Below are positions 1 to 51,809 of a stretch of DNA of 64,000 nucleotides, piece after piece (position 1 is the first letter of the stretch; every line of letters begins with the position of its first letter). Both the position numbers and the translations under genes were made by a program. Under the pieces are notes generated by a model. That model searched no databases. It had not been told where the DNA came from and saw only the letters and a program-made list of their open reading frames with translations. The stretch is taken from sequence record MT446411.1; one strand, 5' to 3'. The stretch is from Escherichia virus TH40.

Positions 1-1
1 C

Positions 2-2542
2 CACGAAGTTAATGTTAATGACGGAATAACCTGGTATTCCGGAGATGGCTTAGACACTTATCTTTGGTCGTTTAACTGGGCCGGTGGATTGAAAGCGGGT
101 CATTCTATTGCTGTTGGCCTTCCTCACGGTTCTAAAAATTATTCAGAAATGGGCACGGCTTCTATTGCTCTTGGTGATAATGACACCGGGTTAAAATGGC
201 ACCAAGATGGATATTTTTTTACGGTAAACAACGGTACAAAAACTTTCCTTTCCGGTCCGGCGGAAACTACTAGTCTTAGAAAAATGGTTATGGGTTATTC
301 TGTAAATGGTACTGATTTGACAACGCCACCAGCAGAAAACTACGCCCTGGCAACTGTAGTTACTTACCATGATAATAACGCTTTTGGTGATGGTCAAACC
401 CTTTTAGGATATTATCAAGGCGGTAATTACCATCACTATTTTCGTGGTAAAGGCACTACAAACGTTAACACCGCAGGCGGATTGTTAGTTACTCCAGGTG
501 ATATTAATGTTACCGGTGGTTCGGTTAATATCGACGGCCGCAACAATGCATCTACTCTGTTGTTCAAAGGATATACTACAGGAAGTAGTTCAGTTGATAA
601 TATGACTATCAGCGTTTGGGGTAATACCTTTACTAATGTCGATGGTGACCGTAAAAATGTAATGGAAATATCTGATGCCACCAGCTGGATTCAATATTAC
701 CAACGTCTGACTTCAGGTTCTATCCAAAGCCATTTAAATGGAACTTTGGGCGTAAATGAAAGTATAAATGTCGGCCAGGAAGTTAACGTCTCTGGCACTA
801 TTGCCGGTAATGCGGTCAATGCACTTCGTATTTGGAACGACGATTATGCCGCTATTTTCCGACGTTCAGAAGGTAGTCTTCATATTATTCCTACCGCCTT
901 TGGTGAAGGTAAAACTGGGGACATCGGTCCACTTCGCCCGTTTAGTTTGGCTTTAGATACTGGTAAAGTTACTATTCCAGATTTACAGTCAAGTTACAAT
1001 ACGTTCGCTGCAAACGGCTATATTAAATTTGTTGGCCATGGTGCAGGCGCAGGTGGATATGATATTCAATACGACCAAGCAGCTCCCATTTTCCAGGAAA
1101 TCGATGATGATGCCGTAAGTAAATATTACCCAATTGTTAAGCAAAAATACCTTCAAGGTAAAGCTGTGTGGTCTTTAGGTACTGAAATTAGCTCAGGTAC
1201 ATTCGTTATTCATCATCTGAAAGAAGATGGAACACAGGGTCATACATCAAGATTTAATGCTGATGGTACAGTTAATTTCCCGGATAACGTGCAGGTTGGC
1301 GGCGGTGAAGCTACTATTGGCAAAAATGGTAACATCTGGTCTGATATCTGGAAAACGTTTACTTCTGCCGGTGATGTAACCAATCTTCTTGGTGCTGTCT
1401 ATAGCCGTGTTTCAAAAGAAGGCGATACGCTGACCGGGCGCTTAACTCTTAATGCAAACTCGGATGCTATTGTTATTAACAGTGCTGCAACCGAATCCGG
1501 TTATGTGAAAGGACAAAAAGCTGGTGTTGATAACTGGTATGTAGGCAATGGCGGCGCTGATAACGCCCTATCGTTTTATAGTTTCCGAACTAATTCAGGC
1601 GTTAATATTCATAATAGTGGGGAAATTGCTTTAGCTCCTCAAGGGTCGGATACTTTTTATTTTAATAGGGACCGTCTTTATATAAAGGGTTCACAATGGG
1701 CTGCACATCAGGCTGGCGATTGGGGAAACCAATGGAAGCAAGAAGCTCCTGTGTTTGTAGATTTTGGTAATGTTGGTAATGATAGTTATTATCCGATTAT
1801 CAAAGGAAAATCTGGTATTACTAACGAAGGATACGTATCCGGTGTAGATTTTGGTATGCGCCGCATCACTAATACATGGGCCCAAGGTATTATTCGTGTA
1901 GGTAACCAGGAAAATGGCTCCGACCCGCAAGCTATCTATGAATTCCACTCTAATGGTACTTTTTATGCTCCGAGCTTACTTAAGAGCAACAGAGTATCGG
2001 CTGGTGGTGGAGACCCTGTATGGACTGGACCATGTATTGTTATCGGCGATAACGACACCGGATTGGTATGGGAAGCAGACGGTATTTTCAACGCATATGC
2101 AAACGGTCAAGGTGTGTTTAGTTTCCGCGCTGGCCTTGCTCAGACATTTGGCAACGTGTCCCTTAACGTTAACGCGGGTATGTATGTTCGCGATAACATT
2201 GACGTTAACGACGTTTATATTCGTTCTGATATTCGTTGTAAGTCGGAAATTAAGCTTATTGATAACGCCCAAGAGAAATCTAAACTCTTAGGCGGTTATA
2301 CTTATTTGCTTAAAAACTCCGTTACTGATGAAGTTAAACCGTCTGCAGGTTTAATTGCTCAGGAAGTTCAAGAAGTATTACCTGAACTTGTGACTGAAGA
2401 TAAAGAGACCGGCTTACTTCGTTTGAACTATAACGGTATTATCGGTTTAAATACTGCTACTATCAATGAGCATACTGACGAAATCAAGGAATTGAAATCT
2501 GAAATTGCTGAATTGAAAGCATTAATTAAATCATTATTATAA
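2..2542 (+). CDS. 37: long tail fibre distal subunit gp37, 5'-truncated by window start; C-terminal intramolecular-chaperone-like segment
   Basis: Frame open from nt 2; internal repeats (GDNDTGL.W..DG, YYPI[IV]K); C-terminal ...[15 protein letters not shown]...coiled coil; followed by gp38 and t as in T-even phages. Confidence 0.8.
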
Positions 2543-2546
2543 GAAA

Positions 2547-2560
2547 GGGCCTTCGGGCCC
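2547..2560 (+). other. intercistronic stem-loop GGGCC-TTCG-GGCCC between 37 and 38
   Basis: Perfect 5-bp stem with UUCG tetraloop immediately after the 37 stop, T-run and SD for 38 follow. Confidence 0.5.
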
Positions 2561-2571
2561 TGGAGGTTTTT

Positions 2572-3360
2572 ATGGCAGTAGTAGGAATTCCCGGTTGGAT
2601 TGGAACATCAGCAGTGGCTGAAACAGGTCAACGTTGGATGACAGCAGCTTCTAGAGAATTGCGTCTTGGTAACCCATCTTGGATGTCGCAATTTGCTGGT
2701 CGGTCCCGTGAGATTATTCACACCCTTGGCGCAGACCACAACTTTAACGGGCAATGGTTTAGAGACCGTTGTTTTGAAGCCGGTGCCGCACCTATTGTGT
2801 TTAATATCACCGGTGATTTAGTATCTTATACTAAAGATGTTCCATTGTTCTTTATGTACGGTGATACCCCTAATGAATACGTTACTTTGAATATTCACGG
2901 CGGGGTCCATATGTGGGGACGTGGTGGTAACGGTGGGACCCGTGTTTGGATAGCAGGTACAAATGGTGGTGATGTAATTCAAAACGACATTGGAGGCCGA
3001 CTCCGTATCTGGAACTATGGCGTTATAGCTTCAGGTGGTGGCGGCGGCGCCGGATGTGCTTCAAATAACTCTTGGCTTGAAGCAGGTACAGCCGGTGGCG
3101 GCGGTGGTAGACCATATGGATTAGGTGGTACTAATGGCGCCGTAATGCCTGGCGGCAACGCTAGTTATACCGGACCAGGTGGCGGTGGTAGCTTTGGCGG
3201 ACAGTGGGGTGGTGGTAATGGTGGCGACGCAGGCGGGGCTGGTGGCGGCGCTTACGGTCGAAACGTTACATACGGCTCGCAAGGCGGAGCCGGGCGCGCG
3301 GTATTCGGAAGTTCTCCTTCATGGGGCGCGACAGGCACTATCTACGGCTCATGGTTATAG
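2572..3360 (+). CDS. 38: gp38 receptor-binding adhesin (T2-type, glycine-rich motifs)
   Basis: 262 aa; conserved N-terminus then poly-Gly blocks ([24 protein letters not shown]...); SD ggagg; sits between 37 and t. Confidence 0.8.
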
Positions 3361-3371
3361 TACATAAGCGC

Positions 3372-3379
3372 TATAAATA
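3372..3379 (+). promoter_or_regulatory. T4-type late promoter TATAAATA for t
   Basis: Exact TATAAATA 18 nt upstream of the t ATG, followed by SD aaggag. Confidence 0.7.
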
Positions 3380-3397
3380 TCTTTAAAGGAGAAAAGT

Positions 3398-4051
3398 ATG
3401 GAACCAAAAGTAGGAATATCAATACCCGACCTACTTTTTGGACTTCTTGATAGAATTTTTAAAGATAATGCGACCGGGAAAGTTGTTTTTTCCCGGGTAC
3501 TAGTTATTGTTCTATTATTTTTAATGGCGGTAATCTGGTATAAAGGTGATGCACTTTTAGATGCGTACAGGGATGCTTCATATGCCTCATACACTGAAAT
3601 GATAAGGCAAGACCAGGATAACAGATTTAAAATTGCAGCTATCGAGCAAATCCAGATAGTCCACTCGTCAAGTGGAGCAGACTTTACAGCAATATATTCC
3701 TTTAGACCAACTAACCTTAACTACTTTGTGGATATGGTGGGATACGAGGGAATATTGCCTGATACAGTCGACGAAAAAAATTTAGGTGGGTTTCCAATAG
3801 ATAAGACTTCAGCGGAATATTTGGCGGGGGTTAATGGTAATTATTTTGAATCCAGTGTGGAATCTGTATTCTTACCAACAAAGAAAAAAAGCAGCTTCAC
3901 ATATATGTTCAGCTGCCCATTCTTTAATTTGGAAAACGTTTATGCAGGCACAGTCTCACTGTACTGGTATAAGCAAAAACCCGACCTTGGTTTTGATAGG
4001 CTTTCTTCTATGTGTGGACAAGCAGGTCGTACGCTCGGGCGTACACGTTAG
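3398..4051 (+). CDS. t: holin t
   Basis: 217 aa; LLFGLLDRIFKDNATGKV... N-terminal TMD matches T4 T holin; late promoter and SD upstream. Confidence 0.9.
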   Translation: MEPKVGISIPDLLFGLLDRIFKDNATGKVVFSRVLVIVLLFLMAVIWYKGDALLDAYRDASYASYTEMIRQDQDNRFKIAAIEQIQIVHSSSGADFTAIYSFRPTNLNYFVDMVGYEGILPDTVDEKNLGGFPIDKTSAEYLAGVNGNYFESSVESVFLPTKKKSSFTYMFSCPFFNLENVYAGTVSLYWYKQKPDLGFDRLSSMCGQAGRTLGRTR

Positions 4052-4323
4052 AATCCGGAGGTATACATCATAAGATAACGGTGTATATCTTCGAATCCTT
4101 CGTTAAATTGTTCAATGATTTGTTCAATTTCATCTTCAGATAAACTTTTAAACAATTTGTTAAACGATACATTGTTTAACTCATTCCCATTCTCATTTCT
4201 CAATCCCAACTCATTCAAAAACGCGATAAACACATCGCGCTTCATCGTAATATCTTCCCGGTCGGTTTTAATCAAAATTGAAGTTATAGTAACAATTTCA
4301 GAAACGATTTCAAATTTAGTCAT
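4048..4323 (-). CDS. asiA: anti-sigma70 protein AsiA
   Basis: 91 aa; ...ITSILIK..REDI...FIAFLNE...FNEGFE..RYL.MYT matches T4 AsiA; adjacent to t. Confidence 0.9.
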   Translation of the reverse strand: MTKFEIVSEIVTITSILIKTDREDITMKRDVFIAFLNELGLRNENGNELNNVSFNKLFKSLSEDEIEQIIEQFNEGFEDIHRYLMMYTSGF

Positions 4324-4372
4324 TTTAATTTACTCAAGTATTCAATAAGACATTCAATTATTCAGTAAGGGT

Positions 4373-4401
4373 ATTATACTATTATTCCTCTGGGTTGTAC
4401 A
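4373..4401 (-). promoter_or_regulatory. early promoter (-35 TGTACA, 17 bp, -10 TATAAT) for asiA
   Basis: TGTACA at 4396-4401 and TATAAT (rc) at 4373-4378 upstream of asiA. Confidence 0.45.
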
Positions 4402-4546
4402 CATGATTTTCCATCTGTACAACATATTCCTGATACATCTGTTCAACTGGTTCCTGGAACTTAAAATCAGCTCCAAGGAATTCCTCAAAGCAAGCCTGCT
4501 CGTGCGTACGTTGACCGGTGATGGTGTTCTCTAAGTTATGACTCAT
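4382..4546 (-). CDS. small acidic hypothetical protein (54 aa)
   Basis: Sub-threshold ORF MSHNLENTITGQ... in the asiA-arn gap. Confidence 0.3.
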   Translation of the reverse strand: MSHNLENTITGQRTHEQACFEEFLGADFKFQEPVEQMYQEYVVQMENHVYNPEE

Positions 4547-6807: not shown

Positions 6808-7023
6808 TTATCCCTTAATAGATTTCATGTAATTTGATGCATATGATTGTACCACAGTACGTTTCATATGGGAAGTAGAAACAATAACATCAATCGCTTG
6901 TTTACGTTCTTCTTTAGAATTCGCCAGTTTGAACATATCAAAGTAGTAATAGCAAGCTTCTTTGTTAGATTTGAATTTAGCGTTAATGTATTCTTGACCT
7001 TCATTCTGTTGTGCAGTAAACAT
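6808..7023 (-). CDS. hypothetical protein (52.1 position)
   Basis: ORF trimmed to first ATG (MFTAQQNEG...), SD ggag. Confidence 0.5.
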   Translation of the reverse strand: MFTAQQNEGQEYINAKFKSNKEACYYYFDMFKLANSKEERKQAIDVIVSTSHMKRTVVQSYASNYMKSIKG

Positions 7024-7072
7024 TTTATTCTCCAAAGTTTTTGTGATTCATTGTGTAACTCAGTATGGAATC

Positions 7073-7101
7073 ATTATGCATCAGGTCAAGGGTCATGTAC
7101 A
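7073..7101 (-). promoter_or_regulatory. early promoter cassette (TGTACA-17-CATAAT) with gtaactcagtatgg leader
   Basis: Member of recurring promoter/leader family; drives 6808-7023. Confidence 0.5.
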
Positions 7102-7130
7102 CTACTTTTTTAAATATTTTAAAATAAAAA

Positions 7131-7152
7131 CTAGGACCCCGAAGGGTCCTAG
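7131..7152 (-). terminator. rho-independent terminator (bidirectional-looking)
   Basis: ctaggaccc-cgaa-gggtcctag flanked by A-run and T-run. Confidence 0.7.
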
Positions 7153-7247
7153 TTTTTATCTATCTTATTACCAATAAACATACCAACAATCACACCTGCG
7201 ATTGCCGCGAAAATACAAAGCAATGCAAACTCAACTCCAAAACTCAT
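7149..7247 (-). CDS. small hydrophobic protein (32 aa)
   Basis: MSFGVEFALLCIFAAIAGVIVGMFIGNKIDKN; start overlaps the gp52 stop (ATGA). Confidence 0.4.
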   Translation of the reverse strand: MSFGVEFALLCIFAAIAGVIVGMFIGNKIDKN

Positions 7248-8917: not shown

Positions 8918-8919
8918 AT

Positions 8920-8985
8920 TTTCCTCAAGGGCGCCCAAAGACGCCAGTTAATTTCAGATTATGACGATGCCATTGCATCGCTACA
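8920..8985 (-). repeat. ~66-bp repeated intergenic hairpin/SD element, copy 1
   Basis: Near-identical to 9184-9249; contains GGCGCC-CAAA-GACGCC hairpin directly 5' of gaggaaaatATG. Confidence 0.6.
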
Positions 8986-9027
8986 GGCAGCAAGGGCTAA
9001 CGAATAGCCCAAGATTTTCTTAATCAT
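8959..9027 (-). pseudogene. truncated duplicate (22 codons) of the 8632-8772 gene N-terminus
   Basis: MIKKILGYSLALAA then diverges where the repeated hairpin element begins. Confidence 0.3.
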
Positions 9028-9182: not shown

Positions 9183-9183
9183 A

Positions 9184-9249
9184 TTTTCCTCAAGGGCGTC
9201 CAAAGACGCCAGTTAATTTAAGATTATGGCGATGCCATTGCATCACATG
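9184..9249 (-). repeat. ~66-bp repeated intergenic hairpin/SD element, copy 2
   Basis: GGCGTC-CAAA-GACGCC perfect 6-bp stem; same flanks as copy 1. Confidence 0.6.
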
Positions 9250-9262
9250 TTCATTATGGAAA

Positions 9263-9437: not shown

Positions 9438-9887
9438 TTAATAACTCTGCAGAATGAATTTAAAGTTATCAGCAAGCATGCGATTCATTTCTGAAAGGGT
9501 CTGGCAATCAGAACTATGCGAGCGAGTGAACGCCATCGCAATTTGACCTTTACCATAACCAGTTGTCAGAGGTTTCATTTTAGAAACTGGGACAAACAGG
9601 ACTTCATAGATAACCCCATTGTTCGCCATTGTGCGAGACAGTTGAGAACGCTGTTTGCGGATGTGGCTTAATACAGTGTCAAACCCTTGTTGTGAACGTT
9701 GGTTACCAACATAAAACCGTGCAGCAACAATACGTGATTCGCCTTCACCTTTAACCACGAAATAAAAACCTGGTTGAGTGATAGCTTCTTTAGTTGGGCG
9801 ACCTGCAACATAATTACCATTATGAATATAAGCAACAGTGGTAGCGCCAGCATTCAGTACGTCACGACGGGTCATGTAAGTAGTCAT
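9438..9887 (-). CDS. ndd: nucleoid disruption protein Ndd
   Basis: 149 aa; ...[28 protein letters not shown]...[15 protein letters not shown] matches T4 Ndd. Confidence 0.85.
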
Positions 9888-9931
9888 ATTAATTTCCTCA
9901 GTAAGTTAAAGTTTTTTGCTCCAGTGGGGTC

Positions 9932-9960
9932 ATTATACTCTGACCCCAAGAGTTTGTACA
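9932..9960 (-). promoter_or_regulatory. early promoter/stem-loop cassette (TGTACA-17-TATAAT inside GGGGTCA/TGACCCC stem) for ndd
   Basis: -10 lies in the loop of a 7-bp stem; same ~45-bp element repeated at 20558-20598. Confidence 0.55.
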
Positions 9961-10308
9961 CTATTTTTGAAGTTGTTCTAAAATAAATCCGCTCGTATAA
10001 AAGGAAGCATTATACACCTTATTCAGCGGGGTCAAAGCGCGCTTATAGGTATTACGCAATTCTTTGATAACATTTTCATAACTCACGTAGTAAGCACTAT
10101 GATAATAACCTGGCTCCATACTCATACGAAATTTAATGAACCGATAAAAGCCTGTTTCCGGGTCTTGGACGAAAACGAAATCAGCACTCGTCATAACTTT
10201 TGGATGTACGTCAGGAATCATACTTTGATTGAATGCCTCCGACGCCTCCTGAAGGCTAATCTGTTTAAAGAACATAACTTTAGCATTACCAAAAAATACT
10301 TTAGACAT
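9961..10308 (-). CDS. hypothetical protein
   Basis: 115-aa ORF. Confidence 0.5.
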   Translation of the reverse strand: MSKVFFGNAKVMFFKQISLQEASEAFNQSMIPDVHPKVMTSADFVFVQDPETGFYRFIKFRMSMEPGYYHSAYYVSYENVIKELRNTYKRALTPLNKVYNASFYTSGFILEQLQK

Positions 10309-10955: not shown

Positions 10956-11078
10956 TCAAAAGAAATAGTTAAAGTAAACGCGCACATGGTCAATCATAAA
11001 AACAATTGGGAAAATGCTCAGGACAACAAACAGTACAAACATGTTCCAAATGGCTTTAAGTAACTTTTTCATAATCAT
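10956..11078 (-). CDS. small membrane protein (40 aa)
   Basis: MIMKKLLKAIWNMFVLFVVLSIFPIVF...; downstream of promoter cassette. Confidence 0.4.
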   Translation of the reverse strand: MIMKKLLKAIWNMFVLFVVLSIFPIVFMIDHVRVYFNYFF

Positions 11079-11098
11079 CTCCAGTAGTTGATAGGTTC

Positions 11099-11126
11099 AT
11101 TATACTACAACCACTGGAGATGTACA
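11099..11126 (-). promoter_or_regulatory. early promoter cassette (TGTACA-16-TATAAT) within TCTCCAGT/ACTGGAGA inverted repeat; cagtagttgatagg leader
   Basis: Recurring family. Confidence 0.5.
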
Positions 11127-11217
11127 CTCTTTTATGCAAGTTTCATTAATAATAAACTAAAACAAACGCAAATTACTGGGATACACAACATCCAGATAAG
11201 GCACCAGGTTTTGCTGC

Positions 11218-11484
11218 TCAAAATATCACCTCTTTGATTTCAATCAATCCTCTGTACAATGCGGTGCGAAGGTCATAAAGAATATCTATGCCATCAACAT
11301 TATCCAGCTTGCCATCAATAAGCTTTTTCAAATCTTCCTTTGACGCAACTAGTGGGCGAAGAAATTTACAATCAGAAAGAGACAATTCTGTGGTAACATC
11401 ATCACCATCACCTGACGCATCATACATAGCGGCAACAACCATACCTGTAACTTTGTGTTTGGCGTAGTATAATTTAATATCCAT
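11218..11484 (-). CDS. hypothetical protein
   Basis: Trimmed to MDIKLYYAKHK...; track N-terminal extension is translated leader. Confidence 0.5.
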   Translation of the reverse strand: MDIKLYYAKHKVTGMVVAAMYDASGDGDDVTTELSLSDCKFLRPLVASKEDLKKLIDGKLDNVDGIDILYDLRTALYRGLIEIKEVIF

Positions 11485-11517
11485 TTGTTTCTCCAGTTGG
11501 TAACTCAGTATGGAATC

Positions 11518-11546
11518 ATTATATATAGACTCCATACTGATGTACA
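11518..11546 (-). promoter_or_regulatory. early promoter cassette (TGTACA-17-TATAAT) in CAGTATGGA/TCCATACTG 9-bp stem
   Basis: -10 in hairpin loop; gtaactcagtatgg leader family. Confidence 0.55.
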
Positions 11547-11557
11547 CTACTTTTTGA

Positions 11558-11833
11558 TTAATTGTGCATTTGTTCTTTAACTTCTTTATATGCACCAACT
11601 GCATTCACGACCCCAGTGAAATCTGCTGTTCCGCGATATAGATAGAAAGCGATTTCAGTCAGGTGATAAACTTCAAATTCTGAAAGATAAATGATAACGT
11701 CATAATAGGCAACTTGCCCCTGGACTTCGTTGAATACCACATCAAAAATTTCATGGGTTGGAAAATTGATGTTGTTGTTTTTGAGTGCTTGAATAAGAAT
11801 TTGTTTGATGTGATGAGTAGTAACGTGTTCCAT
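11558..11833 (-). CDS. hypothetical protein
   Basis: Trimmed to MEHVTTHHIKQ...; SD gagga. Confidence 0.45.
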   Translation of the reverse strand: MEHVTTHHIKQILIQALKNNNINFPTHEIFDVVFNEVQGQVAYYDVIIYLSEFEVYHLTEIAFYLYRGTADFTGVVNAVGAYKEVKEQMHN

Positions 11834-16461: not shown

Positions 16462-16720
16462 TCTCCTGCAATATTTTTCTCATACTACGCATGGTAGCTT
16501 TATGTTCTTGGTCATGGTATATCAATGCAAGGAGTGCTTCAATTCGCTCCTCTGGGACCTTCTGACCATCCTTTATGCTCATGGCTGATGTTCTTACAGC
16601 CAACAAGTAACTTCGCTTCCTGTCGCTATCTGGGAGCTCCTGTACCTTCCTCAAGCCTGCTTCCATAATACAACGAGCAACATTCTGCAGATTAACTAAA
16701 CTTCCGTCAGACATAATCAT
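16421..16720 (-). CDS. hypothetical protein
   Basis: 99-aa ORF. Confidence 0.5.
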   Translation of the reverse strand: MIMSDGSLVNLQNVARCIMEAGLRKVQELPDSDRKRSYLLAVRTSAMSIKDGQKVPEERIEALLALIYHDQEHKATMRSMRKILQEIGNDKLQSESGTV

Positions 16721-16737
16721 ATTTTCACCTCAAGGAC

Positions 16738-16766
16738 ATCTTAACACAATTTTTGTGGTCTGTACA
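16738..16766 (-). promoter_or_regulatory. early promoter (TGTACA-17-TAAGAT)
   Basis: Upstream of 16421-16720. Confidence 0.4.
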
Positions 16767-16776
16767 TAATAAAAAA

Positions 16777-16790
16777 GGACCCGAAGGTCC
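16777..16790 (-). terminator. rho-independent terminator GGACC-CGAA-GGTCC
   Basis: Hairpin followed by TTTTTTATT on - strand. Confidence 0.7.
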
Positions 16791-16795
16791 TTTGA

Positions 16796-18823: not shown

Positions 18824-18845
18824 CTTTCCTCTTGTGTATGGAGGT

Positions 18846-18870
18846 ATTATAAGTCACATATTTTAAAGCA
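18846..18870 (-). promoter_or_regulatory. MotA-dependent middle promoter (TTGCTTTA box, 12 bp, TATAAT) for gene 39
   Basis: rc ...tTTGCTTTAaaatatgtgactTATAAT... Confidence 0.6.
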
Positions 18871-18873
18871 AAA

Positions 18874-18887
18874 AGGCCCGAAGGCCT
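18874..18887 (-). terminator. rho-independent terminator AGGCC-CGAA-GGCCT
   Basis: Hairpin plus TTTTTG on - strand after lipoprotein gene. Confidence 0.65.
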
Positions 18888-19965: not shown

Positions 19966-20526
19966 TTAGGCAAAATGAATATCAGCATACTCAACGATAA
20001 AGCTCTCAGGAACAACCTTAAAGGTTCCAAGGAACACGATATTATACAGTTTGACCCCTTCTTCAACCCACTGGTCTGTGATGTAACCAGACATGCTAGT
20101 GGTTTCATAAGTCGGACCATACATGCAATTGTATTCAAACGGTTTAGGTGAAACAAAAAAGACACCTTTGCCCAATTTCCATTTAAAATCAACCCCAACA
20201 TGAGACTGGTCAATGATTTCAACGTCTTGAGCAATTACGCCACGAATATCATTGCTTTCGCACACATATCCATCATGGGATTCAACTTCTTCAACCACAG
20301 GGAGGTTGGCGGCAGTAATAGCAGTTGATTCCAGGAATTTAGCACGCACATAAGCGAATTGAGTTTCAGTCTGACCATTTTTGGGAATGATACGCACCTT
20401 TACTTCATTATCAGGATGGTCAACAAAAATATCAGCACGAATACTGACAACCTCAACAAAACGTCCAGCGGCTCTTGAACGAGATTTTTTGGATACGCGA
20501 ACGATTTCGCCAGCTTCAACTTTCAT
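19966..20526 (-). CDS. hypothetical protein, paralogue of 20606-21358
   Basis: C-terminal ~35 aa (GYITDQWVEEGVKLYNIVFLGTFKVVPESFIVEY) align with the neighbour. Confidence 0.55.
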   Translation of the reverse strand: MKVEAGEIVRVSKKSRSRAAGRFVEVVSIRADIFVDHPDNEVKVRIIPKNGQTETQFAYVRAKFLESTAITAANLPVVEEVESHDGYVCESNDIRGVIAQDVEIIDQSHVGVDFKWKLGKGVFFVSPKPFEYNCMYGPTYETTSMSGYITDQWVEEGVKLYNIVFLGTFKVVPESFIVEYADIHFA

Positions 20527-20568
20527 AATTTTCTCTCTTGGTTAATAAGTTTATTCTCCAGTGGGGTC

Positions 20569-20597
20569 ATTATACTCTGACCCCAAGAGTTTGTACA
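20569..20597 (-). promoter_or_regulatory. early promoter/stem-loop cassette, copy of the ndd element
   Basis: ctccagtggggtcattatactctgaccccaagagtttgtacac. Confidence 0.55.
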
Positions 20598-20605
20598 CTT
20601 TAAAT

Positions 20606-21358
20606 TTAATTAAAAATTTCAACAACCATGGAACGTGGTACAACAGTAAATTCACCAGCATGGACAACGTTCAGGAGTTCAACATCATCTTCAATCCACT
20701 GGTCTGTTACCCAACCACAAATGGAACTGTTAAATGGGCGTTTGATTTGAACTGGTTTACACAGCAAGTCAATAGGGTCACCCAGTTCGCTAACTTCTTC
20801 CAGCAGTACAGATTCACGTGGATAAAGGATAGCTTCAAGATTGTCACCTGATTCATTGACTGCAGTAAATTCAAAGATGCTTTGGTGATTGTGGTACTTA
20901 ACTGTTTTAACGGTAAATGGAGCAAATCCAAAAATACCTTTCAGTACGCGCCAACCGGCATTCAATGCATTAGTATTATCAAAATCACCATATCCAACAA
21001 GTTGATAGGTTTTGTCAACTTTGATAGGAGTTTCTTCAACTTCTTTGAAGAGTTCAATCTCAGCTTCATAAATCATAATTTTTTCTACTTCATTAGTATC
21101 AAGGCGACGTGCATGTAGAATATATGCTTTATCAAACCAGTTACTTTTTACAAAAGTTTCAACAATAAATTCACCTTCACCTAAAGCATCAGTCAGAGTA
21201 TTATACCCAGAAACCATAGCTGCATTTTGAATAATAGGTTCAATCAGTTGATAAGTTTTGTTAATTTCAATAGTCATATTTTGTTTCTCAAGTTTTAATG
21301 GTTTAATTGGGCGAACATACATACTTACAACATCAAAGTCAATAAATTCTGGTTTCAT
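20606..21358 (-). CDS. hypothetical protein with internal duplication, paralogue of 19966-20526
   Basis: 250 aa; KTYQL... segment repeated; C-terminus GWVTDQWIEDDVELLNVVHAGEFTVVPRSMVVE. Confidence 0.55.
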   Translation of the reverse strand: MKPEFIDFDVVSMYVRPIKPLKLEKQNMTIEINKTYQLIEPIIQNAAMVSGYNTLTDALGEGEFIVETFVKSNWFDKAYILHARRLDTNEVEKIMIYEAEIELFKEVEETPIKVDKTYQLVGYGDFDNTNALNAGWRVLKGIFGFAPFTVKTVKYHNHQSIFEFTAVNESGDNLEAILYPRESVLLEEVSELGDPIDLLCKPVQIKRPFNSSICGWVTDQWIEDDVELLNVVHAGEFTVVPRSMVVEIFN

Positions 21359-21615
21359 TATGCAACCTTATTGAACATCGCCAGTTGGTTAGGTTGTACA
21401 ACCATAATTTCACGACGGCCTTTTGCGTTTGACACGTTCAAGTAGATGCCTTTGTTCATGTCTGTTTCTTTATCATATACCGCAATTTTATTGACAGTAA
21501 AGATTTTACCACGAATATTTGTAAATGCACATTCAAACGCTTCAGTCAGACCTGCTTCAGCAGCTTGAAGAGCAGACATTTCATATTGTTGGCCAATTTC
21601 AAAAGAAGTAATCAT
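21358..21615 (-). CDS. hypothetical protein
   Basis: Trimmed to MITSFEIGQQYEM... Confidence 0.5.
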   Translation of the reverse strand: MITSFEIGQQYEMSALQAAEAGLTEAFECAFTNIRGKIFTVNKIAVYDKETDMNKGIYLNVSNAKGRREIMVVQPNQLAMFNKVA

Positions 21616-21646
21616 TTTGTTATCCTCATCAGTAGTTGATGAGATG

Positions 21647-21675
21647 ATTATGTCTCTTTCCATTGGCCTTGTACA
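21647..21675 (-). promoter_or_regulatory. early promoter cassette (TGTACA-17-CATAAT) with catcagtagttgatgag leader
   Basis: Recurring family. Confidence 0.5.
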
Positions 21676-21682
21676 CTACTTT

Positions 21683-22366
21683 TTATCGTTTTTTCGGTAA
21701 AGATAACGGGTCTGCATCTTCTTCGGAAGGAACTTCATCCAAACCAAGAGCATAGCGCTGGGCATACTTAAGCATCAAAATATCTTTCGCGCAGTCATGC
21801 ACCGAATCATGCGCCACAAATCCATCTAAAGTCCCCTTCGGTAATGGAGTTTCACACATCTTACGGACGAGTGATAGGGCTTCAATTGCCGTCCTGATAT
21901 CTCGCTGGTTCCAGAATACAACCGGCTCCAGGCCGTAGGTATTCAATTCACGCTCGGGAATACCCTCATTGCGCTGTAGGTCACGGATAAGGTCAACAAA
22001 CAACGGGAAGTCAAAAGACATTCCACGACACCACATAAGGCTTTCGTATTTGTTAATTCCATTACCATTCAGATAATCAATTGCTTGTTGGATACCAGTC
22101 AGAGTATCAACATCTTGCGCAGAAGGAGCCAAGTTAACACGAGCTTCTGGAGATTGTTTTTTCCACCAACCCATAGTTGTTGTGTCAAACAGACGTTTAC
22201 CTTTCTGGTATTCTAGGCTGAACTTAATGCGTTTACCGCGATTAACCAGAGTTTCAAAAGATTCCACAATAGCAGGGTCAGATTCAAATGTAATCAGAGC
22301 CAGGTCAATAACGGCCCCCTTCGAGCCGTTTCCCAGAGTTTCAAAGTCAATAATAGCATCAATCAT
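21683..22366 (-). CDS. dexA: exonuclease A DexA (DEDD 3'-5' exonuclease)
   Basis: 227 aa; MIDAIIDFETLG...WCRGMSFDFP...GFVAHDSVHDCAKDI matches T4 DexA. Confidence 0.9.
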   Translation of the reverse strand: MIDAIIDFETLGNGSKGAVIDLALITFESDPAIVESFETLVNRGKRIKFSLEYQKGKRLFDTTTMGWWKKQSPEARVNLAPSAQDVDTLTGIQQAIDYLNGNGINKYESLMWCRGMSFDFPLFVDLIRDLQRNEGIPERELNTYGLEPVVFWNQRDIRTAIEALSLVRKMCETPLPKGTLDGFVAHDSVHDCAKDILMLKYAQRYALGLDEVPSEEDADPLSLPKKR

Positions 22367-24216: not shown

Positions 24217-24963
24217 TTAACCTCTAATCAGTTTAAAAATTGACGCGTTCAAAGGTAGACCACGTTTCAGTTTTAATTTACCAATAAAACCAATCTTCTC
24301 AAAACGCTCAAGACCTTGAATGATTTTATCATAGCAATCAAAAAGCGTTTCAGCATTAGTTAATTTCTTGGTAACTTTCCAGTCATTACCCTTGAGCAGG
24401 ACATTCAATTTAGTAAGCTCATGACCTTCTGCAATACGGGAACCATCAATGCGAGCCTTCAGAGCAACCATTTTTAATTGGTTTTCTTTTGACTGCTCTG
24501 ATTTACTCATTTGGGCATAATGCTTAACGCGATTCTCACGTTTGTGCTGGATGTTCTTTATATGGTTGTATGACTTTTTAATCTGTTCCCATTTCTCTGA
24601 AGTCAGATTTAACTTTTCAATCTTCTTGGCAGATGGGCGAGCAATTTTTACAGCAACATCATCACGACGTTGTTTAAGCTCACCCAGGGACCAATCAGAA
24701 CGCATGGTATTATATTTCTTTTTAACAGGAATAACATTACCCTTGATATAACCAATATCATTGTTAAAACGTTCTAATGATAACTTCTCGTCTTCAATAG
24801 AGTTATTAAATGCTTCACCAGAATAAGCACAAACTTTTTGGTCAAGAATGTTAACCAGGTAATTGAAATCCAGGTTAAAGTCCTTACCACGACGTTTAGC
24901 AGAAGCTTGAGTGTGGTCCAGACGACGTTTAACTTTCAGCGTTTTGGTTTTTGATAAAGTCAT
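24217..24963 (-). CDS. srd: possible Srd (sigma-like) protein
   Basis: 248 aa basic protein at the T4 srd position between dda and modA; sequence not verified. Confidence 0.4.
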   Translation of the reverse strand: MTLSKTKTLKVKRRLDHTQASAKRRGKDFNLDFNYLVNILDQKVCAYSGEAFNNSIEDEKLSLERFNNDIGYIKGNVIPVKKKYNTMRSDWSLGELKQRRDDVAVKIARPSAKKIEKLNLTSEKWEQIKKSYNHIKNIQHKRENRVKHYAQMSKSEQSKENQLKMVALKARIDGSRIAEGHELTKLNVLLKGNDWKVTKKLTNAETLFDCYDKIIQGLERFEKIGFIGKLKLKRGLPLNASIFKLIRG

Positions 24964-25010
24964 GATATTTTTCTCATCTTACGGACGATTGAATAACTCA
25001 GTACGGAATC

Positions 25011-25038
25011 ATTATACACTATTCATCTTTCATGTACA
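25011..25038 (-). promoter_or_regulatory. early promoter cassette (TGTACA-16-TATAAT)
   Basis: aataactcagtacgg leader family; upstream of srd. Confidence 0.5.
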
Positions 25039-25098
25039 CTACTTTTTTGCCTTTAACGCTTTTATTTTTACCGTGTATAATGGTTCTAAGGTCTTTGG

Positions 25099-25713
25099 TT
25101 AATTCAAAACAGTTAAATGCCAAACAGTATACAGGTTGTTCAATGGGTGTGTCTCAATTAAATCTACGCGAAGCGTAGTCCCAGCGGGAAACATAAACTC
25201 ATCCTCATCATTAACCAGGTGTAAGTTTGACTTCCTGGTTGCTTCTGGATATGCACCATTGAACTCTTCAGGAGGAGCACCGCAAATCATTTTAAAGATT
25301 GCTTCCTGATAGTTATACGCATAAGGTGCATTGTTTATGCAGAAAATATTCCTTGTACCATAGAAGCTATATGATGCGAAATTTCTTGCAACCTGCCAGT
25401 CCCTGGAAAAACTCATCACACGATTGAACTCAATTGTTGCACCAACATATCTTAAATCTTCCAGGTATTCCATGGTTTTCTTTGATATACCACGGAACAA
25501 TGCTGCAGGCGGTGCAGTGTTCAGATTGTTGCGGATAATCCTGGTTAAGTCTTCTTGAATCAGGTCGGGTTTATTTTCCATACACTGCCAGAGTACTGAT
25601 TGCTCATTATCTGTATAAAGGGCATCAATCTCCGCTTGACATTGGTCACGAAAAGACTCACTAGAAGCGGCCGTGTCAATAATTCCATTCAAAACGTCAT
25701 CAGTGTACAGCAT
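25099..25713 (-). CDS. modA: ModA-like ADP-ribosyltransferase
   Basis: Trimmed to MLYTDD...; Arg (LFRGIS), Ser-rich (MSFSRD) and acidic (DEDEF) candidates; position after srd. Confidence 0.5.
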   Translation of the reverse strand: MLYTDDVLNGIIDTAASSESFRDQCQAEIDALYTDNEQSVLWQCMENKPDLIQEDLTRIIRNNLNTAPPAALFRGISKKTMEYLEDLRYVGATIEFNRVMSFSRDWQVARNFASYSFYGTRNIFCINNAPYAYNYQEAIFKMICGAPPEEFNGAYPEATRKSNLHLVNDEDEFMFPAGTTLRVDLIETHPLNNLYTVWHLTVLN

Positions 25714-25744
25714 TTTATTATCCTCATCAGTAGTTGATAGGAAC

Positions 25745-25774
25745 ATCTTAACGTGTCTTATTGCTCTTGTACAC
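25745..25774 (-). promoter_or_regulatory. early promoter (TGTACA, weak -10 TAAGAT) plus catcagtagttgatagg leader
   Basis: Upstream of modA-like gene. Confidence 0.35.
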
Positions 25775-26318
25775 AGTCAAGAACATAATAATCATCAACA
25801 AATCCAGCATCAACTACCACGAATTTCTGGTCAACTGGAACAAACCATTCAAGCTCAGAATCAATCATGTCCATGTATTCTTCACGCCTTAATGTAGCTG
25901 CCTGGGCGGAACCAGAAGCAGTATTGAAGAATTCCAGTGGAACGTCAAGCGCGATTTTGCGCATCGCATCATGGTAACAAAAAGCTTTGGTCCGATTCAA
26001 TCTGACGATAGTCCTAGTCGCATATTCCATTGCAGCAAAATCCCTGGCAATACCATAGTCTTCTGTAAAGGATGTTATCCGTCCAAATTCAAAAGGTTGC
26101 ATTGATTCTTTTGCTTCATCTAACAAATCAATCTCTTGCTGGGTTACCCCGCGCCACAAGACTGTATCGGGTATAGACAACCTTGACTTGATGATTGAGT
26201 TGACATTTGAATGCAAGGTCTTATCAACCTTTGATGTACGACATTCAAATAATGAAGCTATCTCCATTTCACTAAATTTTAACTGGTTGGGTTCGGTATC
26301 AGATTTGATGATGTTCAT
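25758..26318 (-). CDS. modB: ModB-like ADP-ribosyltransferase
   Basis: 186 aa; LWRGV, TSFTEDY, SELEWF motif candidates; tandem to modA-like gene. Confidence 0.45.
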   Translation of the reverse strand: MNIIKSDTEPNQLKFSEMEIASLFECRTSKVDKTLHSNVNSIIKSRLSIPDTVLWRGVTQQEIDLLDEAKESMQPFEFGRITSFTEDYGIARDFAAMEYATRTIVRLNRTKAFCYHDAMRKIALDVPLEFFNTASGSAQAATLRREEYMDMIDSELEWFVPVDQKFVVVDAGFVDDYYVLDCVQEQ

Positions 26319-28160: not shown

Positions 28161-28213
28161 AGTATTCTCCTCTGTAATTGAAATAATTATACCGCTTCTA
28201 TTAAAAGCAAAAA

Positions 28214-28231
28214 GGGACTCCGAAGAGTCCC
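28214..28231 (-). terminator. rho-independent terminator GGGACTC-CGAA-GAGTCCC
   Basis: 7-bp stem, TTTTTG on - strand, just after soc. Confidence 0.7.
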
Positions 28232-28236
28232 TATAA

Positions 28237-31860: not shown

Positions 31861-32154
31861 TTATTCACCTGTAACCCATTGAACAATTTTGCTATTGTCA
31901 AATGAAGCATCGCAATACAGAACATAGTTATACTGCATAACGTCACCAGAAGTCAATTGGTCAGATACTTCTTTAACCATATCAGGGCGGTCGCGTTTAG
32001 TTATGTTCATGATATCAGCATAAATCTGATGTTCAACATCAGTCTGGTCAGCAGTCATAGACCACTCACAAAGGTCTTTATCAAGTCCAGCAGTAACTGG
32101 AGCTGTACCACATGATGCTACGGTAAGAATTGCCGCGATTAATAACTTTTTCAT
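31861..32154 (-). CDS. sp: Spackle periplasmic superinfection-exclusion protein
   Basis: 97 aa; signal peptide; ...DKDLCEWSMTADQT.VE.QI.ADIMNI.KRDRP.M...VMQYNYVLYCD matches T4 Sp. Confidence 0.85.
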   Translation of the reverse strand: MKKLLIAAILTVASCGTAPVTAGLDKDLCEWSMTADQTDVEHQIYADIMNITKRDRPDMVKEVSDQLTSGDVMQYNYVLYCDASFDNSKIVQWVTGE

Positions 32155-32182
32155 TTCAATCTCCTCAGTAGTTGATAGGGAT

Positions 32183-32211
32183 AATATACAGCATTATCCC
32201 TTTGTTGTACA
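32183..32211 (-). promoter_or_regulatory. early promoter cassette (TGTACA-17-TATATT) in AGGGATAAT/ATTATCCCT stem
   Basis: cctcagtagttgataggg leader; upstream of sp. Confidence 0.5.
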
Positions 32212-32451
32212 CTATTTTAATGCATCTTTCAGATAAATTTTGCGGAATTTGCGTTTTGTCTGACGAATCTGACGCTTAGTAGGTTTCACAGGAAAATCGA
32301 AGAACTCTACGTATTCTTGTTCATAATCATTGTGGCCGACTGAAAGAACTAGTTCCCAGCTGCTTACGGTGCGTTGGATAAACATATTATGCTTACCAAA
32401 AGATTTATTCCAAAAAGAACTAGGGGTAGGTTTCATTAATGCGATATTCAT
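32212..32451 (-). CDS. hypothetical protein
   Basis: 79-aa ORF. Confidence 0.45.
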   Translation of the reverse strand: MNIALMKPTPSSFWNKSFGKHNMFIQRTVSSWELVLSVGHNDYEQEYVEFFDFPVKPTKRQIRQTKRKFRKIYLKDALK

Positions 32452-32655: not shown

Positions 32656-32973
32656 TTAGATTTCCTCACAAAACGCCCAGGCGGCGTGATAAACTGTGGC
32701 GCCTTTAGTATCATTTAAACAAACCACGTCAACAGGTGCAATCACACGATAAAGACGGGGTTCTCCTCCATATGAGCGGGCTGCTCTTCCTGCATAGATA
32801 CGGGCCAAACCAATATCTTCAGTAAAAAACACACGCCCTAAATTTTTCTTGCGCCCAACTTCTGACAGAACACCAGTTGCATCAGGAGGGCAAAGCATAT
32901 TTTGGATTCCAGCATTAGAGCTTGAGCCATGATAATAAACTTTGTATTCCGCCTTGCAATCAATAGTTTTCAT
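32656..32973 (-). CDS. hypothetical protein
   Basis: 105-aa ORF. Confidence 0.5.
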   Translation of the reverse strand: MKTIDCKAEYKVYYHGSSSNAGIQNMLCPPDATGVLSEVGRKKNLGRVFFTEDIGLARIYAGRAARSYGGEPRLYRVIAPVDVVCLNDTKGATVYHAAWAFCEEI

Positions 32974-32999
32974 TTTATTCTCCAGTAGTTGATAGGGTC

Positions 33000-33028
33000 A
33001 TTATAACATAAGAAAAAGGGGCTGTAAG
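33000..33028 (-). promoter_or_regulatory. early promoter cassette (-35 variant CTTACA, -10 TATAAT)
   Basis: ctccagtagttgataggg leader; -35 overlaps terminator hairpin. Confidence 0.4.
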
Positions 33029-33032
33029 CCCC
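33018..33032 (-). terminator. rho-independent terminator GGGGC-TGTAA-GCCCC
   Basis: Flanked by A-run and T-run, just downstream of gene 41. Confidence 0.65.
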
Positions 33033-33044
33033 TTTTAAAATATT

Positions 33045-36977: not shown

Positions 36978-37220
36978 TCATTTGGTTTCCTTGATGATAA
37001 TTACATGTGCATTTGATTTACGCTCAGCAACGAGTGCCCAGATAAATGCAATAAACCATCCGACCATTGTCCAACCTAACAGGAGGTTAACAAAGAAGAT
37101 TCCGCAATTACTTTTGGTTCCTCGCAGTAGCGCGATAATCCACGGCAGAAAATATGCCAGTGCAGCCAGGAAGAAAGAACCAGCACCAAGAACAACAGTA
37201 CCTGCAATTAATGTTTCCAT
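36978..37220 (-). CDS. imm: possible Imm immunity protein (two-TM)
   Basis: 80 aa, two hydrophobic helices, immediately upstream of 43 as in T4; sequence not verified. Confidence 0.45.
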   Translation of the reverse strand: METLIAGTVVLGAGSFFLAALAYFLPWIIALLRGTKSNCGIFFVNLLLGWTMVGWFIAFIWALVAERKSNAHVIIIKETK

Positions 37221-37260
37221 TTTAATATCCTTAATTTAATCATCAGTAGTTGATGGAGTA

Positions 37261-37289
37261 ATCATACGGCAATCCTTTGCCGTTGTAAA
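37261..37289 (-). promoter_or_regulatory. early promoter cassette (-35 TTTACA, -10 TATGAT) with catcagtagttgatgg leader
   Basis: Upstream of imm; stem CGGCAA/TTGCCG. Confidence 0.4.
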
Positions 37290-37292
37290 CAC

Positions 37293-43422: not shown

Positions 43423-43674
43423 TTAATCAAAGTATTCATATGCGAACCAGGCATTGTGTCTGTTCGCGATTATTTTAACATATTCTTCACCGAAAGCGTT
43501 TTGCAAGTCACGTTCAGTGACAAGGTGTTCATCTTTCGAAAAGGTATTAACTAACACATACCGTTTAATTTCAGGGACAGCCAATAAATGCTGCCCGGTT
43601 AAGAAGTCAGCCATAATAGCCTCTATTATAACATCCTTGTTTAAAGCATTATTCCATAACAGTGAATCGACCAA
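43423..43674 (-). CDS. hypothetical protein
   Basis: 83-aa ORF. Confidence 0.45.
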   Translation of the reverse strand: MVDSLLWNNALNKDVIIEAIMADFLTGQHLLAVPEIKRYVLVNTFSKDEHLVTERDLQNAFGEEYVKIIANRHNAWFAYEYFD

Positions 43675-46940: not shown

Positions 46941-46990
46941 ATACTCTCCTCAGTTGGTTCATTTTATCATCCCGAATATAAAGCAAAAAA

Positions 46991-47007
46991 GGAAGCACTA
47001 GGCTTCC
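46991..47007 (-). terminator. rho-independent terminator GGAAGC-loop-GCTTCC
   Basis: Hairpin followed by TTTTTTG on - strand. Confidence 0.6.
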
Positions 47008-48524: not shown

Positions 48525-48547
48525 ATCGCCTCACTTAGTATATGAAT

Positions 48548-48572
48548 ATTATATCATCCTTAATACAAAGCA
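48548..48572 (-). promoter_or_regulatory. MotA-type middle promoter (TGCTTTG box, 12 bp, TATAAT) for gene 55
   Basis: rc aaTGCTTTGtattaaggatgaTATAAT. Confidence 0.45.
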
Positions 48573-49684: not shown

Positions 49685-49727
49685 GATATATTCCTCAGTC
49701 TCATTAAATTAAAATTTTATTATCCTG

Positions 49728-49749
49728 GGGGTCATTATACCATGACCCC
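49728..49749 (-). promoter_or_regulatory. stem-loop GGGGTCA/TGACCCC carrying extended -10 TGGTATAAT
   Basis: Same stem arms as the ndd cassette; no clear -35. Confidence 0.4.
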
Positions 49750-49757
49750 GTTGGTTT

Positions 49758-50645: not shown

Positions 50646-50818
50646 AATTTAATTTCCTTAGCTATCGAACAAAACACTCCACGGTCACAAATCATTTTAA
50701 TACCAAGGTCAATTATGGTATACCACACATCCAGGCTAGATATTTCAGTTACTAAAACAGCTTTGCCGTTGATTGAATAATACTGGTTGACTTTAATTTC
50801 TTTATCTTCAATAACCAT
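50642..50818 (-). CDS. hypothetical protein
   Basis: Trimmed to MVIEDKEIKVNQ...; track extension is translated leader. Confidence 0.45.
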   Translation of the reverse strand: MVIEDKEIKVNQYYSINGKAVLVTEISSLDVWYTIIDLGIKMICDRGVFCSIAKEIKL

Positions 50819-50849
50819 TTTGTTTTCCTCATCAGTAGTTGATGGGATA

Positions 50850-50882
50850 ATGATACACCGTTCAAAGGGGCTTGTACACCCC
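50850..50882 (-). promoter_or_regulatory. early promoter cassette with TGTACA inside GGGG/CCCC hairpin; catcagtagttgatgg leader
   Basis: Hairpin 50867-50882 just after the glutaredoxin-like gene stop. Confidence 0.4.
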
Positions 50883-50885
50883 TTT

Positions 50886-51695: not shown

Positions 51696-51809
51696 ATTTA
51701 CCCTTAATTGATTAACCAAGCATTGATAAGCACTAAACTATATTGTGAATAAAATTCTGGACCAAAATGAAAAATCATATCATTTATAGTATCCATAATA
51801 TAATTAAAT

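Follow-up and report, generated by a model that had tools for sequence, protein, structure and literature searches.

The motif repeated through the stretch of Escherichia virus TH40 analysed here (64,000 nt of record MT446411.1, hereafter the window) is the early-promoter set of a T4-like phage, and a lineage-specific example of the known layout of promoter-early stem-loops (PeSLs). Each element is very probably a compact minus-strand cassette for expression of an early gene, equipped with a conserved leader and often with an RNA hairpin. At 11088-11127 on the minus strand, for example, the element reads GTGTACA-TCTCCAGTGGTTGTAG-TATAAT-GAACCT-ATCAACTACTGGAGATGATTATG. A full cassette would run, in order, from an intrinsic terminator (present only sometimes) through an A-rich, UP-like tract (AAAAAGTAG), the -35 hexamer TGTACA, a spacer of 16-17 bp, the -10 hexamer TATAAT, a GAYYCY discriminator and a start at the A 7 nt downstream, to a conserved leader of 11-14 nt (three types), a Shine-Dalgarno (SD) sequence that fits the RegB/S1 pattern (GGAGAATAAAATG or GAGGATAAYAAAATG) and the ATG.

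By megablast, the window groups with the T4-like coliphages VR7, SP18, VR20, VR25 and VR26 (genus Gaprivervirus), and its closest relatives are 92-97% identical to it, none being identical. Bases 1-4051 hold plus-strand tail-fibre genes and a holin gene, and the remainder is a minus-strand early region, in which asiA, motA, ndd, rIIB, rIIA, gene 39, motB, dexA and dda are followed by srd, modA/B, genes 61 and 41, uvsX, gene 43, genes 46/47, gene 55 and the nrdC cluster (gene names were taken from the annotated VR7 record and Pfam). An Rfam scan of the whole 64-kb window at gathering thresholds gave no match.

The exact promoter motif is strand-specific and far above chance in the window, and likewise in seven relatives. 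TGTACA-N15-19-TATAAT occurs seven times (0.12 expected from shuffles) and TGTACA-N15-19-CATAAT three times (0.11 expected), all on the minus strand; with the spacer set to 16 or 17 bp, TGTACA-N16/17-[T/C]ATAAT has ten occurrences, 10/10 on the minus strand, against about 0.2 expected. The earlier note had ascribed these hexamers to at least 16 minus-strand intergenic sites, which holds exactly for ten of the 16 listed, the other six being one-hexamer variants: the -10 is TAAGAT at 16738 and 25745, TATATT at 32183 and TATCAT at 50850, while 33000 has CTTACA and 37261 has TTTACA/TATGAT. All 16 lie on the minus strand before ORFs, but not all are wholly intergenic, since those at 4373 and 25745 reach into the 3' end of the preceding ORF. 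TGTACA agrees with the sigma-70 -35 consensus at only 4/6 positions, and TGTACA-N16/17-TATAAT, with 10/12, is among the top-scoring minus-strand matches of a generic sigma-70 scan, whose background is high (75 found vs 56 expected). A loose one-mismatch scan also had too high a background (27 and 13 matches vs about 11 per strand in shuffles), which is why the analysis was based on exact motif matches and on the leaders. A-rich tracts of the AAAAAGTAG type lie upstream of promoters, the SD and start codon of the downstream gene form the 3' end of the cassettes, and the genes so fronted include members of the classical immediate-early set of T4, namely asiA, ndd, motB, srd, modA, sp and imm, as well as small ORFs. 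The individual cassettes, with L1 to L3 denoting the three leader types, are as follows.

4321-4413, minus strand: asiA cassette (site 4373), TGTACA-N17-TATAAT, own leader ACCCTTACTGAAT, no stem-loop; -35 within the end of the upstream small ORF; AsiA Pfam match at 1.7e-20.
7021-7148, minus strand: cassette (7073) before a 71-aa ORF upstream of motA, TGTACA-N17-CATAAT, L2 leader CCATACTGAGTTAC ending in GGAGAATAAAATG; an intrinsic terminator at 7124-7159, about 25 nt upstream of the -35, is followed by an A-rich tract.
9885-9972, minus strand: ndd cassette (9932), TGTACA-N17-TATAAT, L3 leader; a GGGGTCA/TGACCCC hairpin encloses the -10 (z -3.7); the gene behind it matches Ndd in Pfam at 9.6e-69.
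11070-11138, minus strand: cassette (11099) before a 38-aa ORF (10956-11072), TGTACA-N16-TATAAT, L1 leader; a 13-bp stem, TCTCCAGTGGTTG/CAACTACTGGAGA, encloses the -10 (-25.5 kcal/mol, z -5.9).
11482-11558, minus strand: cassette (11518) before an 88-aa ORF, L2 leader; a 13-bp stem, CAGTATGGAGTC/GATTCCATACTG, encloses the -10 (z -4.9).
16718-16793, minus strand: cassette (16738) before a DUF7367 ORF, TGTACA-N17-TAAGAT, no family leader; an intrinsic terminator at 16774-16793 adjoins the -35.
20524-20609, minus strand: motB cassette (20569), L3 leader, -10-enclosing hairpin; orthologous to the T4 motB early promoter.
21613-21687, minus strand: cassette (21647) before an 85-aa ORF downstream of dexA, TGTACA-N17-CATAAT, L1 leader that folds into an internal hairpin (CUCAUCA-ACUAC-UGAUGAG); SD GAGGATAACAAAATG, in agreement with the RegB consensus.
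24961-25050, minus strand: srd cassette (25011), TGTACA-N16-TATAAT, L2 leader in its G variant, no significant stem.
25711-25785, minus strand: modA cassette (25745), TGTACA-N17-TAAGAT, L1 leader, RegB-type SD GAGGATAATAAAATG; overlaps the end of modB.
32152-32223, minus strand: sp (spackle) cassette (32183), TGTACA-N17-TATATT, L1 leader; the stem GGGATAAT/ATTATCCC overlaps the -10.
32971-33042, minus strand: cassette (33000) just downstream of gene 41, TATAAT, L1 leader, GGAGAATAAAATG; terminator AAAAGGGGC-TTACA-GCCCCTTTTT with the -35 in its loop and a T run after the stem.
37218-37301, minus strand: imm cassette (37261), TTTACA-N17-TATGAT, L1 leader; stem CGGCAA/TTGCCG within the spacer (z -3.6).
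50816-50890, minus strand: 55.6 cassette (50850), stem AAAGGGG/CCCCTTT with the -35 TGTACA in its loop (z -3.4), then TATCAT; its L1 leader also forms a leader hairpin.
60566-60645, minus strand: nrdC.8 cassette (60605), TGTACA-N17-TATAAT, L2 leader ending in GGAGAATAAAATG; the stem GTATGGGGA/TTCCCATAC encloses the -10.
61150-61234, minus strand: cassette (61194), TGTACA-N17-CATAAT, L2 leader, GGAGAATAAAATG; in the window phage, insertion of a plus-strand ORF at 61223 has displaced the A-rich tract and terminator that would lie upstream.
49685-49757, minus strand: related element outside the 16, GGGGTCA-TGGTATAA-TGACCCC around an extended -10 TGGTATAAT, then GGATAATAAAA; no TGTACA -35, and the same hairpin arms as the ndd and motB cassettes.
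8918-9023 and 9183-9262, minus strand: two copies of a fourth cassette type, also outside the 16, each before a small ORF; spacer hairpin GATGC-AATG-GCATC, CATAAT, leader hairpin GGCGTC-TTTG-GRCGCC, then GAGGAAAATATG; the 60-nt upstream regions of the two copies are nearly identical (GATGCAATGGCATCG-CATAAT-...GGCGTCTTTGGRCGCC-CTTGAGGAAAATATG).

The three conserved leaders described in the earlier note are indeed present and restricted to cassettes: L1 (ATCAACTACTG) has seven copies, L2 ([A/G]TACTGAGTTA) five and L3 (CCCCACTGGAG) two, all 14 on the minus strand and none elsewhere in the 64 kb, with sites 4373 and 16738 carrying none of the three. L1 and L2 start exactly 6 nt past the -10 hexamer, and the 5' parts of the leaders (ATCAACTACTG and others) would be the first transcribed bases. 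The note's further remark that the leader creates false N-terminal extensions (...STTDEDNKM) was also correct: because the leader reads in frame, two listed ORFs are overlong, 21358-21663 being given as 101 aa instead of the real 85 aa and 25099-25746 as 215 aa instead of 204 aa. In other T4-like lineages, a leader of their own, ATCAAATC(T/A)AA, is conserved at the same position, so that a conserved leader is a general trait of such promoters. Another lineage with its own, very uniform cassettes was observed among T4-like contigs of IMG/VR (L061-L065, 164-170 kb), in which a terminator with TTTACA in its loop is followed by TATAAT-GGTCTT-ATCAAATCTAATAACGGATTTGAAAC, with up to nine copies of the ATCAAATC leader per 20 kb and 11-16 promoter-pattern matches in all. 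Separately, the L1 leader together with its ribosome-binding site (about 40 nt, 21610-21650) gave matches of 85-87% identity in Asteriusvirus-type jumbo phages of the 121Q/PBECO4 kind (E = 4e-4 to 5e-3, one place per genome); the similarity is probably due to chance or to generic features of ribosome-binding sites.

The 3' parts of the leaders, GGAGAATAAAATG and GAGGATAAYAAAATG, fit the 11-nt RegB/S1 consensus and double as the SD sequences of early genes. In T4, strong intergenic RegB sites follow the consensus GG*A(G/U)RAYARAA (PMC3014915), and the RegB/S1 consensus GG*AGRAYARAA was given by Durand et al. 2006 (as reviewed in PMC3014915). In the window, GGA[G/U]RAYARAA has eight minus-strand matches where 0.58 would be expected, and an ATG follows directly in six of them; only about 6/16 cassettes match the full RegB/S1 consensus. 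Like T4 RegB/S1 sites, leader 3' ends of the types GGAGAATAAAA and GGATAAYAAAA match the 11-nt consensus and are predicted targets. The regB gene is annotated in the congeneric VR7, at a locus that lies outside the window, and is preceded there by a TGTACA-type promoter and a GGAG SD; for T4 regB itself, a typical early promoter drives transcription (PMC3014915). From such orthology and consensus we infer that RegB cleaves the SDs of the leaders. A RegB-like element, GGAG(A/T)ATAAA(C/A), was also noticed in the 5' UTR of motB (20566-20540); it is conserved between T4 and the window phage, is not followed by a start codon and could be a decoy or a processing site in the leader.

Comparison across relatives showed that the hexamers and the leader are more conserved than their surroundings, with identities of 98.7% for the -35, 97.9% for the -10 and 97.5% for the leader (first 14 transcribed bases), whereas the spacer reaches 92.4% and the neighbouring coding sequence 93.6%. 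In VR7 and six unannotated relatives, the strict motif and the leaders again occur only on the gene strand, and in all seven the cassettes occupy orthologous places with the same leader type. Among 31 T4-like early regions, 101 promoter matches were found on the gene strand and four on the other. The same design exists in T4 at motB, cef and motB.2, including a ATCAACTACTGA leader: the T4 motB promoter reads GTTTACA-AACTCTTGGGACCAGAG-TATAAT-GGTCCC, in that of cef the -10 lies between the arms of a perfect 13-bp inverted repeat, ATCAGTAGTTGAT...ATCAACTACTGAT, and the motB.2 leader is CCATAGCTACTGAGGATAATAAAATG. The motB promoter can be aligned from T4 through JS98-like phages to the window phage, and the JS98-like sister genus has TAGTTTACA-N-TATAAT, with hairpins at the same places and of different sequence. 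Together with the regB promoter of VR7, this orthology identifies TGTACA as the form that the T4 early -35, GTTTAC(A), takes in this clade. Sequence, strand, position, conservation and orthology together lend good support to the promoter and leader part of the reading. The literature searched yielded nothing usable on a published early-promoter consensus for VR7 or JS98, and the MotB paper holds nothing on the motB promoter.

A stem-loop is present in 12/16 cassettes, at variable positions: around the -10 at five to six sites, as a terminator around or abutting the -35 at three, in the spacer at one and in the leader only at two. When -45..+20 was folded, the -10 was found in the loop of a strong stem at 9932, 20569, 11099, 11518 and 60605, and a stem overlaps it at 32183, so that the frequent enclosure of the -10 proposed earlier was recovered, with stems of 8-13 bp (z -1.9 to -5.9) instead of 7-9 bp. 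At 33000 and 50850 it is the -35 that lies in the loop of a GC stem, and leader-internal hairpins were seen at 21647 and 25745. Fold z-scores are -1.4 or lower at 11/16 sites and -1.85 or lower at 10/16; the same fold showed no structure beyond shuffled controls at 4373, 7073, 16738 and 25011 and only weak structure at 61194, and since four or five of the 16 sites thus have no significant stem, the hairpin is not obligatory. The look of an intrinsic terminator (GC stem plus T run) is seen at only three sites, 16738, 33000 and 50850; the -10-enclosing hairpins have no U-tract and therefore are not canonical intrinsic terminators.

Evidence on the nature of these hairpins was obtained by aligning the motB promoter in 11 distinct sequences, drawn from T4-like, JS98-like and Gaprivervirus phages. 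In the 8-bp stem that surrounds the -10, 98.9% of cells are paired and five of the eight pairs have both-sided, compensatory changes, with a covariation score of 0.655 against at most 0.21 in controls whose partner was slid by 1-3 columns. On the sense strand, all 12 paired cells other than Watson-Crick ones hold G·U or U·G, and the sole unpaired cell is a U·U mismatch in TH44, whose -35 is also mutated. Because nearly all one-sided changes lead to G·U on the sense strand, RNA is favoured over duplex DNA. With its 5' arm upstream of the start site, the hairpin can form only in RNA read through from an upstream promoter. In a wider set of 91 unique early promoters from the 31 early regions (sampled via Dda with 10-kb flanks; an IMG/VR search with MotB gave only 14 loci), the mean fold z-score was -1.8, and at least five spacer-leader pairs enclose the -10 in 48/91, with the -35 enclosed in 31/91. 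The picture in this set is the one drawn for the stem-loops of RB49/phi1 (PMC2839356). The covariation indicates that the -10-enclosing hairpin has been selected as a sense-strand RNA structure from T4 to Gaprivervirus.

In the proposed mechanism, host sigma-70 RNA polymerase would fire the cassette promoters immediately after infection, and later cleavage of the SD by the phage nuclease RegB would shut the genes off; from orthology and consensus we also infer the start sites and the early timing. Where the -10 lies in the loop, the 5' arm is promoter spacer and the 3' arm leader, so that folding is limited to read-through RNA. There the hairpin might terminate, attenuate or process/stabilise upstream transcripts, as proposed for PeSLs, with the outcome that each gene would be driven mainly by its own promoter. 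Termination, attenuation or processing of upstream transcripts is the most likely role that we would assign to the hairpin.

A different role for the same RNA structure would be that of a translational gate, in which the stem of the read-through RNA hides the ribosome-binding site and translation proceeds only from the transcript of the gene's own promoter. In the T4 genes e, soc, 49 and I-TevI, a late promoter lies inside a hairpin that exerts translational control, with the stem known to hide the ribosome-binding site in each case. The arrangement here is similar, in that the loop holds the promoter, the proximal transcript lacks the 5' arm and only upstream-initiated RNA can fold the promoter-containing stem; at 11099, moreover, the SD GGAGA, located 7 nt before the ATG, is part of the 3' arm CAACTACTGGAGA. 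Unlike the T4 late cases, however, these are early promoters, and 11099 is the only listed site with the ribosome-binding site in the stem, the real SD being free, 15-40 nt past the stem, at 9932, 20569, 11518, 60605 and T4 cef. The free SD at these places means that gating can apply to only a minority of sites, and as an account of the -10-enclosing hairpins it is rather unlikely.

It is also unlikely that these hairpins are conserved signals for RNA processing or insulation rather than terminators. If they were, a cut or a block to decay would fall at the promoter position in read-through RNA, and every mRNA of an early gene, wherever initiated, would receive the same leader and RegB-sensitive ribosome-binding site. 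Such a role would account both for a leader conserved to the same degree as the hexamers and for the co-evolution of spacer and leader from T4 to the window phage.

The earlier note had further likened the cassettes to mobile ones proposed to shuffle modules in T4-type genomes, and had named coincidence with synteny breakpoints as a check. In its strong form, the PeSL reading would make them mobile recombination modules and the main driver of regional change in gene content, with recombination between cassettes excising or inserting mini-circles of an ORF plus cassette, perhaps with the help of a protein that recognises GGGG...CCCC stems. Mini-circles have been shown for RB49/phi1 (PMC2839356), and several loci fit the idea. 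Downstream of gp41, extra ORFs number none in the window, one in VR7 and two in TH44, and each of them comes with a terminator/promoter/leader cassette of its own (in TH54 the ORF found there is a different one, preceded by GTTTACA promoters). Four to five relatives have a replacement for the ORF upstream of sp, and homology resumes at the stop codon/GTGTACA of 32183, so that the swap terminates exactly at the cassette; in TH44, the ndd cassette (9932) is a conserved island between diverged flanks. In addition, 9932 and 20569 share a core of 44 identical nt, and their JS98-like counterparts are closer to each other than to the orthologues here.

Against this reading, blastn alignments of the window with the seven relatives, chained into indel or replacement events, gave 51 distinct events, 47 of them in the early region, and about 41 of these 47 have no endpoint in a cassette. 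Indel endpoints fall in 5/16 intergenic regions with a cassette and in 16/30 without one (odds ratio 0.4, Fisher p = 0.22), i.e., no enrichment, although these counts are approximate because the intergenic regions (at least 25 nt) came from a gene map curated by hand. Only one locus has relative-specific insertions that bring a family cassette, and position and leader type are constant in all relatives. Other events are indels of small ORFs between repeats of ribosome-binding sites or involve an unrelated plus-strand ORF: at 11518, an extra 48-aa ORF lies in five relatives between the leader ribosome-binding site and the next one (11482-11490), and at 61223 a plus-strand ORF was inserted beside the -35, which is one of the five cassette-associated events; neither fits the PeSL picture. 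The lack of breakpoint enrichment and the fixed orthologous positions indicate stable regulatory elements that sometimes lie at module borders. The repeated 45-60 nt provides short homology for recombination, which is here an occasional by-product and not a demonstrated function. Nothing shows the cassettes to be mobile, the shuffling part of the proposal is weak, and the strong form is improbable as an explanation of the family.

It is highly improbable that the inverted repeats act as DNA, whether by binding a dimeric protein as operators or by forming cruciforms that influence how the promoter opens. Their centre is the -10, a frequent position for repressor binding, and GGGGTCA/TGACCCC arms recur at 9932, 20569 and 49685, but from site to site and from genus to genus the arms have completely different sequences and yet stay complementary, and each sense-strand G·U would be an A·C mismatch on the other strand; this reading was rejected on arm diversity and G·U asymmetry. 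The chance that the similarity is a functionless by-product of composition or of a few recent duplications, to which the 44-nt identity of 9932 and 20569 might point, is practically negligible, being effectively refuted by the counts (about 0.1 matches in shuffles vs 7 and 3 observed), by the strict placement on one strand and at gene fronts, by orthologous positions kept with covariation from T4 onward and by hexamers and leader more conserved than coding DNA.

The preferred reading, an early-gene expression cassette, agrees well with two systems described previously. PeSLs were reported in RB49/phi1 by Arbiol et al. 2010, in which the stem-loops lie mostly between the -35 and -10 or overlap the -10 and were proposed, and partly shown, to be terminators or attenuators (PMC2839356), and the description was extended to T4/PST and KVP40/nt-1 by Comeau et al. 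2014 (PMC4122927). The resemblance to them that the earlier note had pointed out is real, in that an A-rich tract, -35, -10, a variable stem-loop, SD and ATG all recur here. As in PeSLs, the elements are composite and intergenic and lie in a variable early region, with an AT-rich tract, sigma-70-like -35 and -10 boxes about 17 bp apart, a stem-loop whose position varies (around the -35, in the spacer, overlapping the -10 or downstream) and which is frequent without being universal (12/16 here), and the SD and ATG of a small gene at the end; modules of an ORF plus cassette also vary between close relatives at some loci. The -35 consensus differs, being TGTACA here, TTGACA in RB49/phi1 and TTTACW in PST/T4, and unlike in PeSLs there are three discrete conserved leaders, the spacer is often complementary to the leader, and breakpoints are not enriched at cassettes in the seven-genome comparison. 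Terminator activity and mini-circles are experimental results for RB49/phi1. The second system comprises the T4 early promoters (Pe), reviewed in Hinton 2010 (PMC2988021), with which the cassettes described here share strong sigma-70-type promoters, UP-like A tracts, the early-gene strand and the same genes and, with regard to motB, cef and motB.2, -10-enclosing hairpins and a ATCAACTACTGA-type leader. They differ from Pe in one -35 base (GTGTACA here vs GTTTACA) and in being predicted computationally.

Several other features were observed in the window. Between the terminator and the -35 of cassette 61194, a plus-strand ORF of 248 aa (61270-62016) lies within the early region and encodes an Sf6-type tail needle knob domain (PF16532, 2.6e-32), with a weak, sub-threshold match to collagen repeats (PF01391, E = 0.0026, 17.9 bits vs 27.2 cutoff); among the relatives, TH54 has it, and TH22, TH44, TH55, TH15, TH57 and VR7 lack it. 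Some 2.4 kb of sequence (51696-54095) is missing in VR7, TH44 and TH15 but present in TH22, TH54, TH55 and TH57; this block contains a 605-aa ORF (52277-54094), putatively nrdD, and its neighbour. In addition, a MotA-box-like TGCTT lies about 12-13 nt upstream of a TATAAT-type -10 in six intergenic regions, several of them directly after GC-stem terminators, and these regions are probably middle promoters of the T4 type:

18824-18886, minus strand: MotA-box-like region.
28161-28236, minus strand: MotA-box-like region.
43615-43648, minus strand: MotA-box-like region.
46941-46997, minus strand: MotA-box-like region.
48525-48572, minus strand: MotA-box-like region.
59982-60043, minus strand: MotA-box-like region.

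For the annotation of such phages, the cassettes give reliable gene starts, mark early transcription units and remove extensions of the ...STTDEDNKM type. The breakpoint count calls for caution against assuming that cassettes are preferred sites of module exchange, and the covariation result narrows the possible roles of PeSL stem-loops, while the established picture of T4 early gene expression is unchanged.
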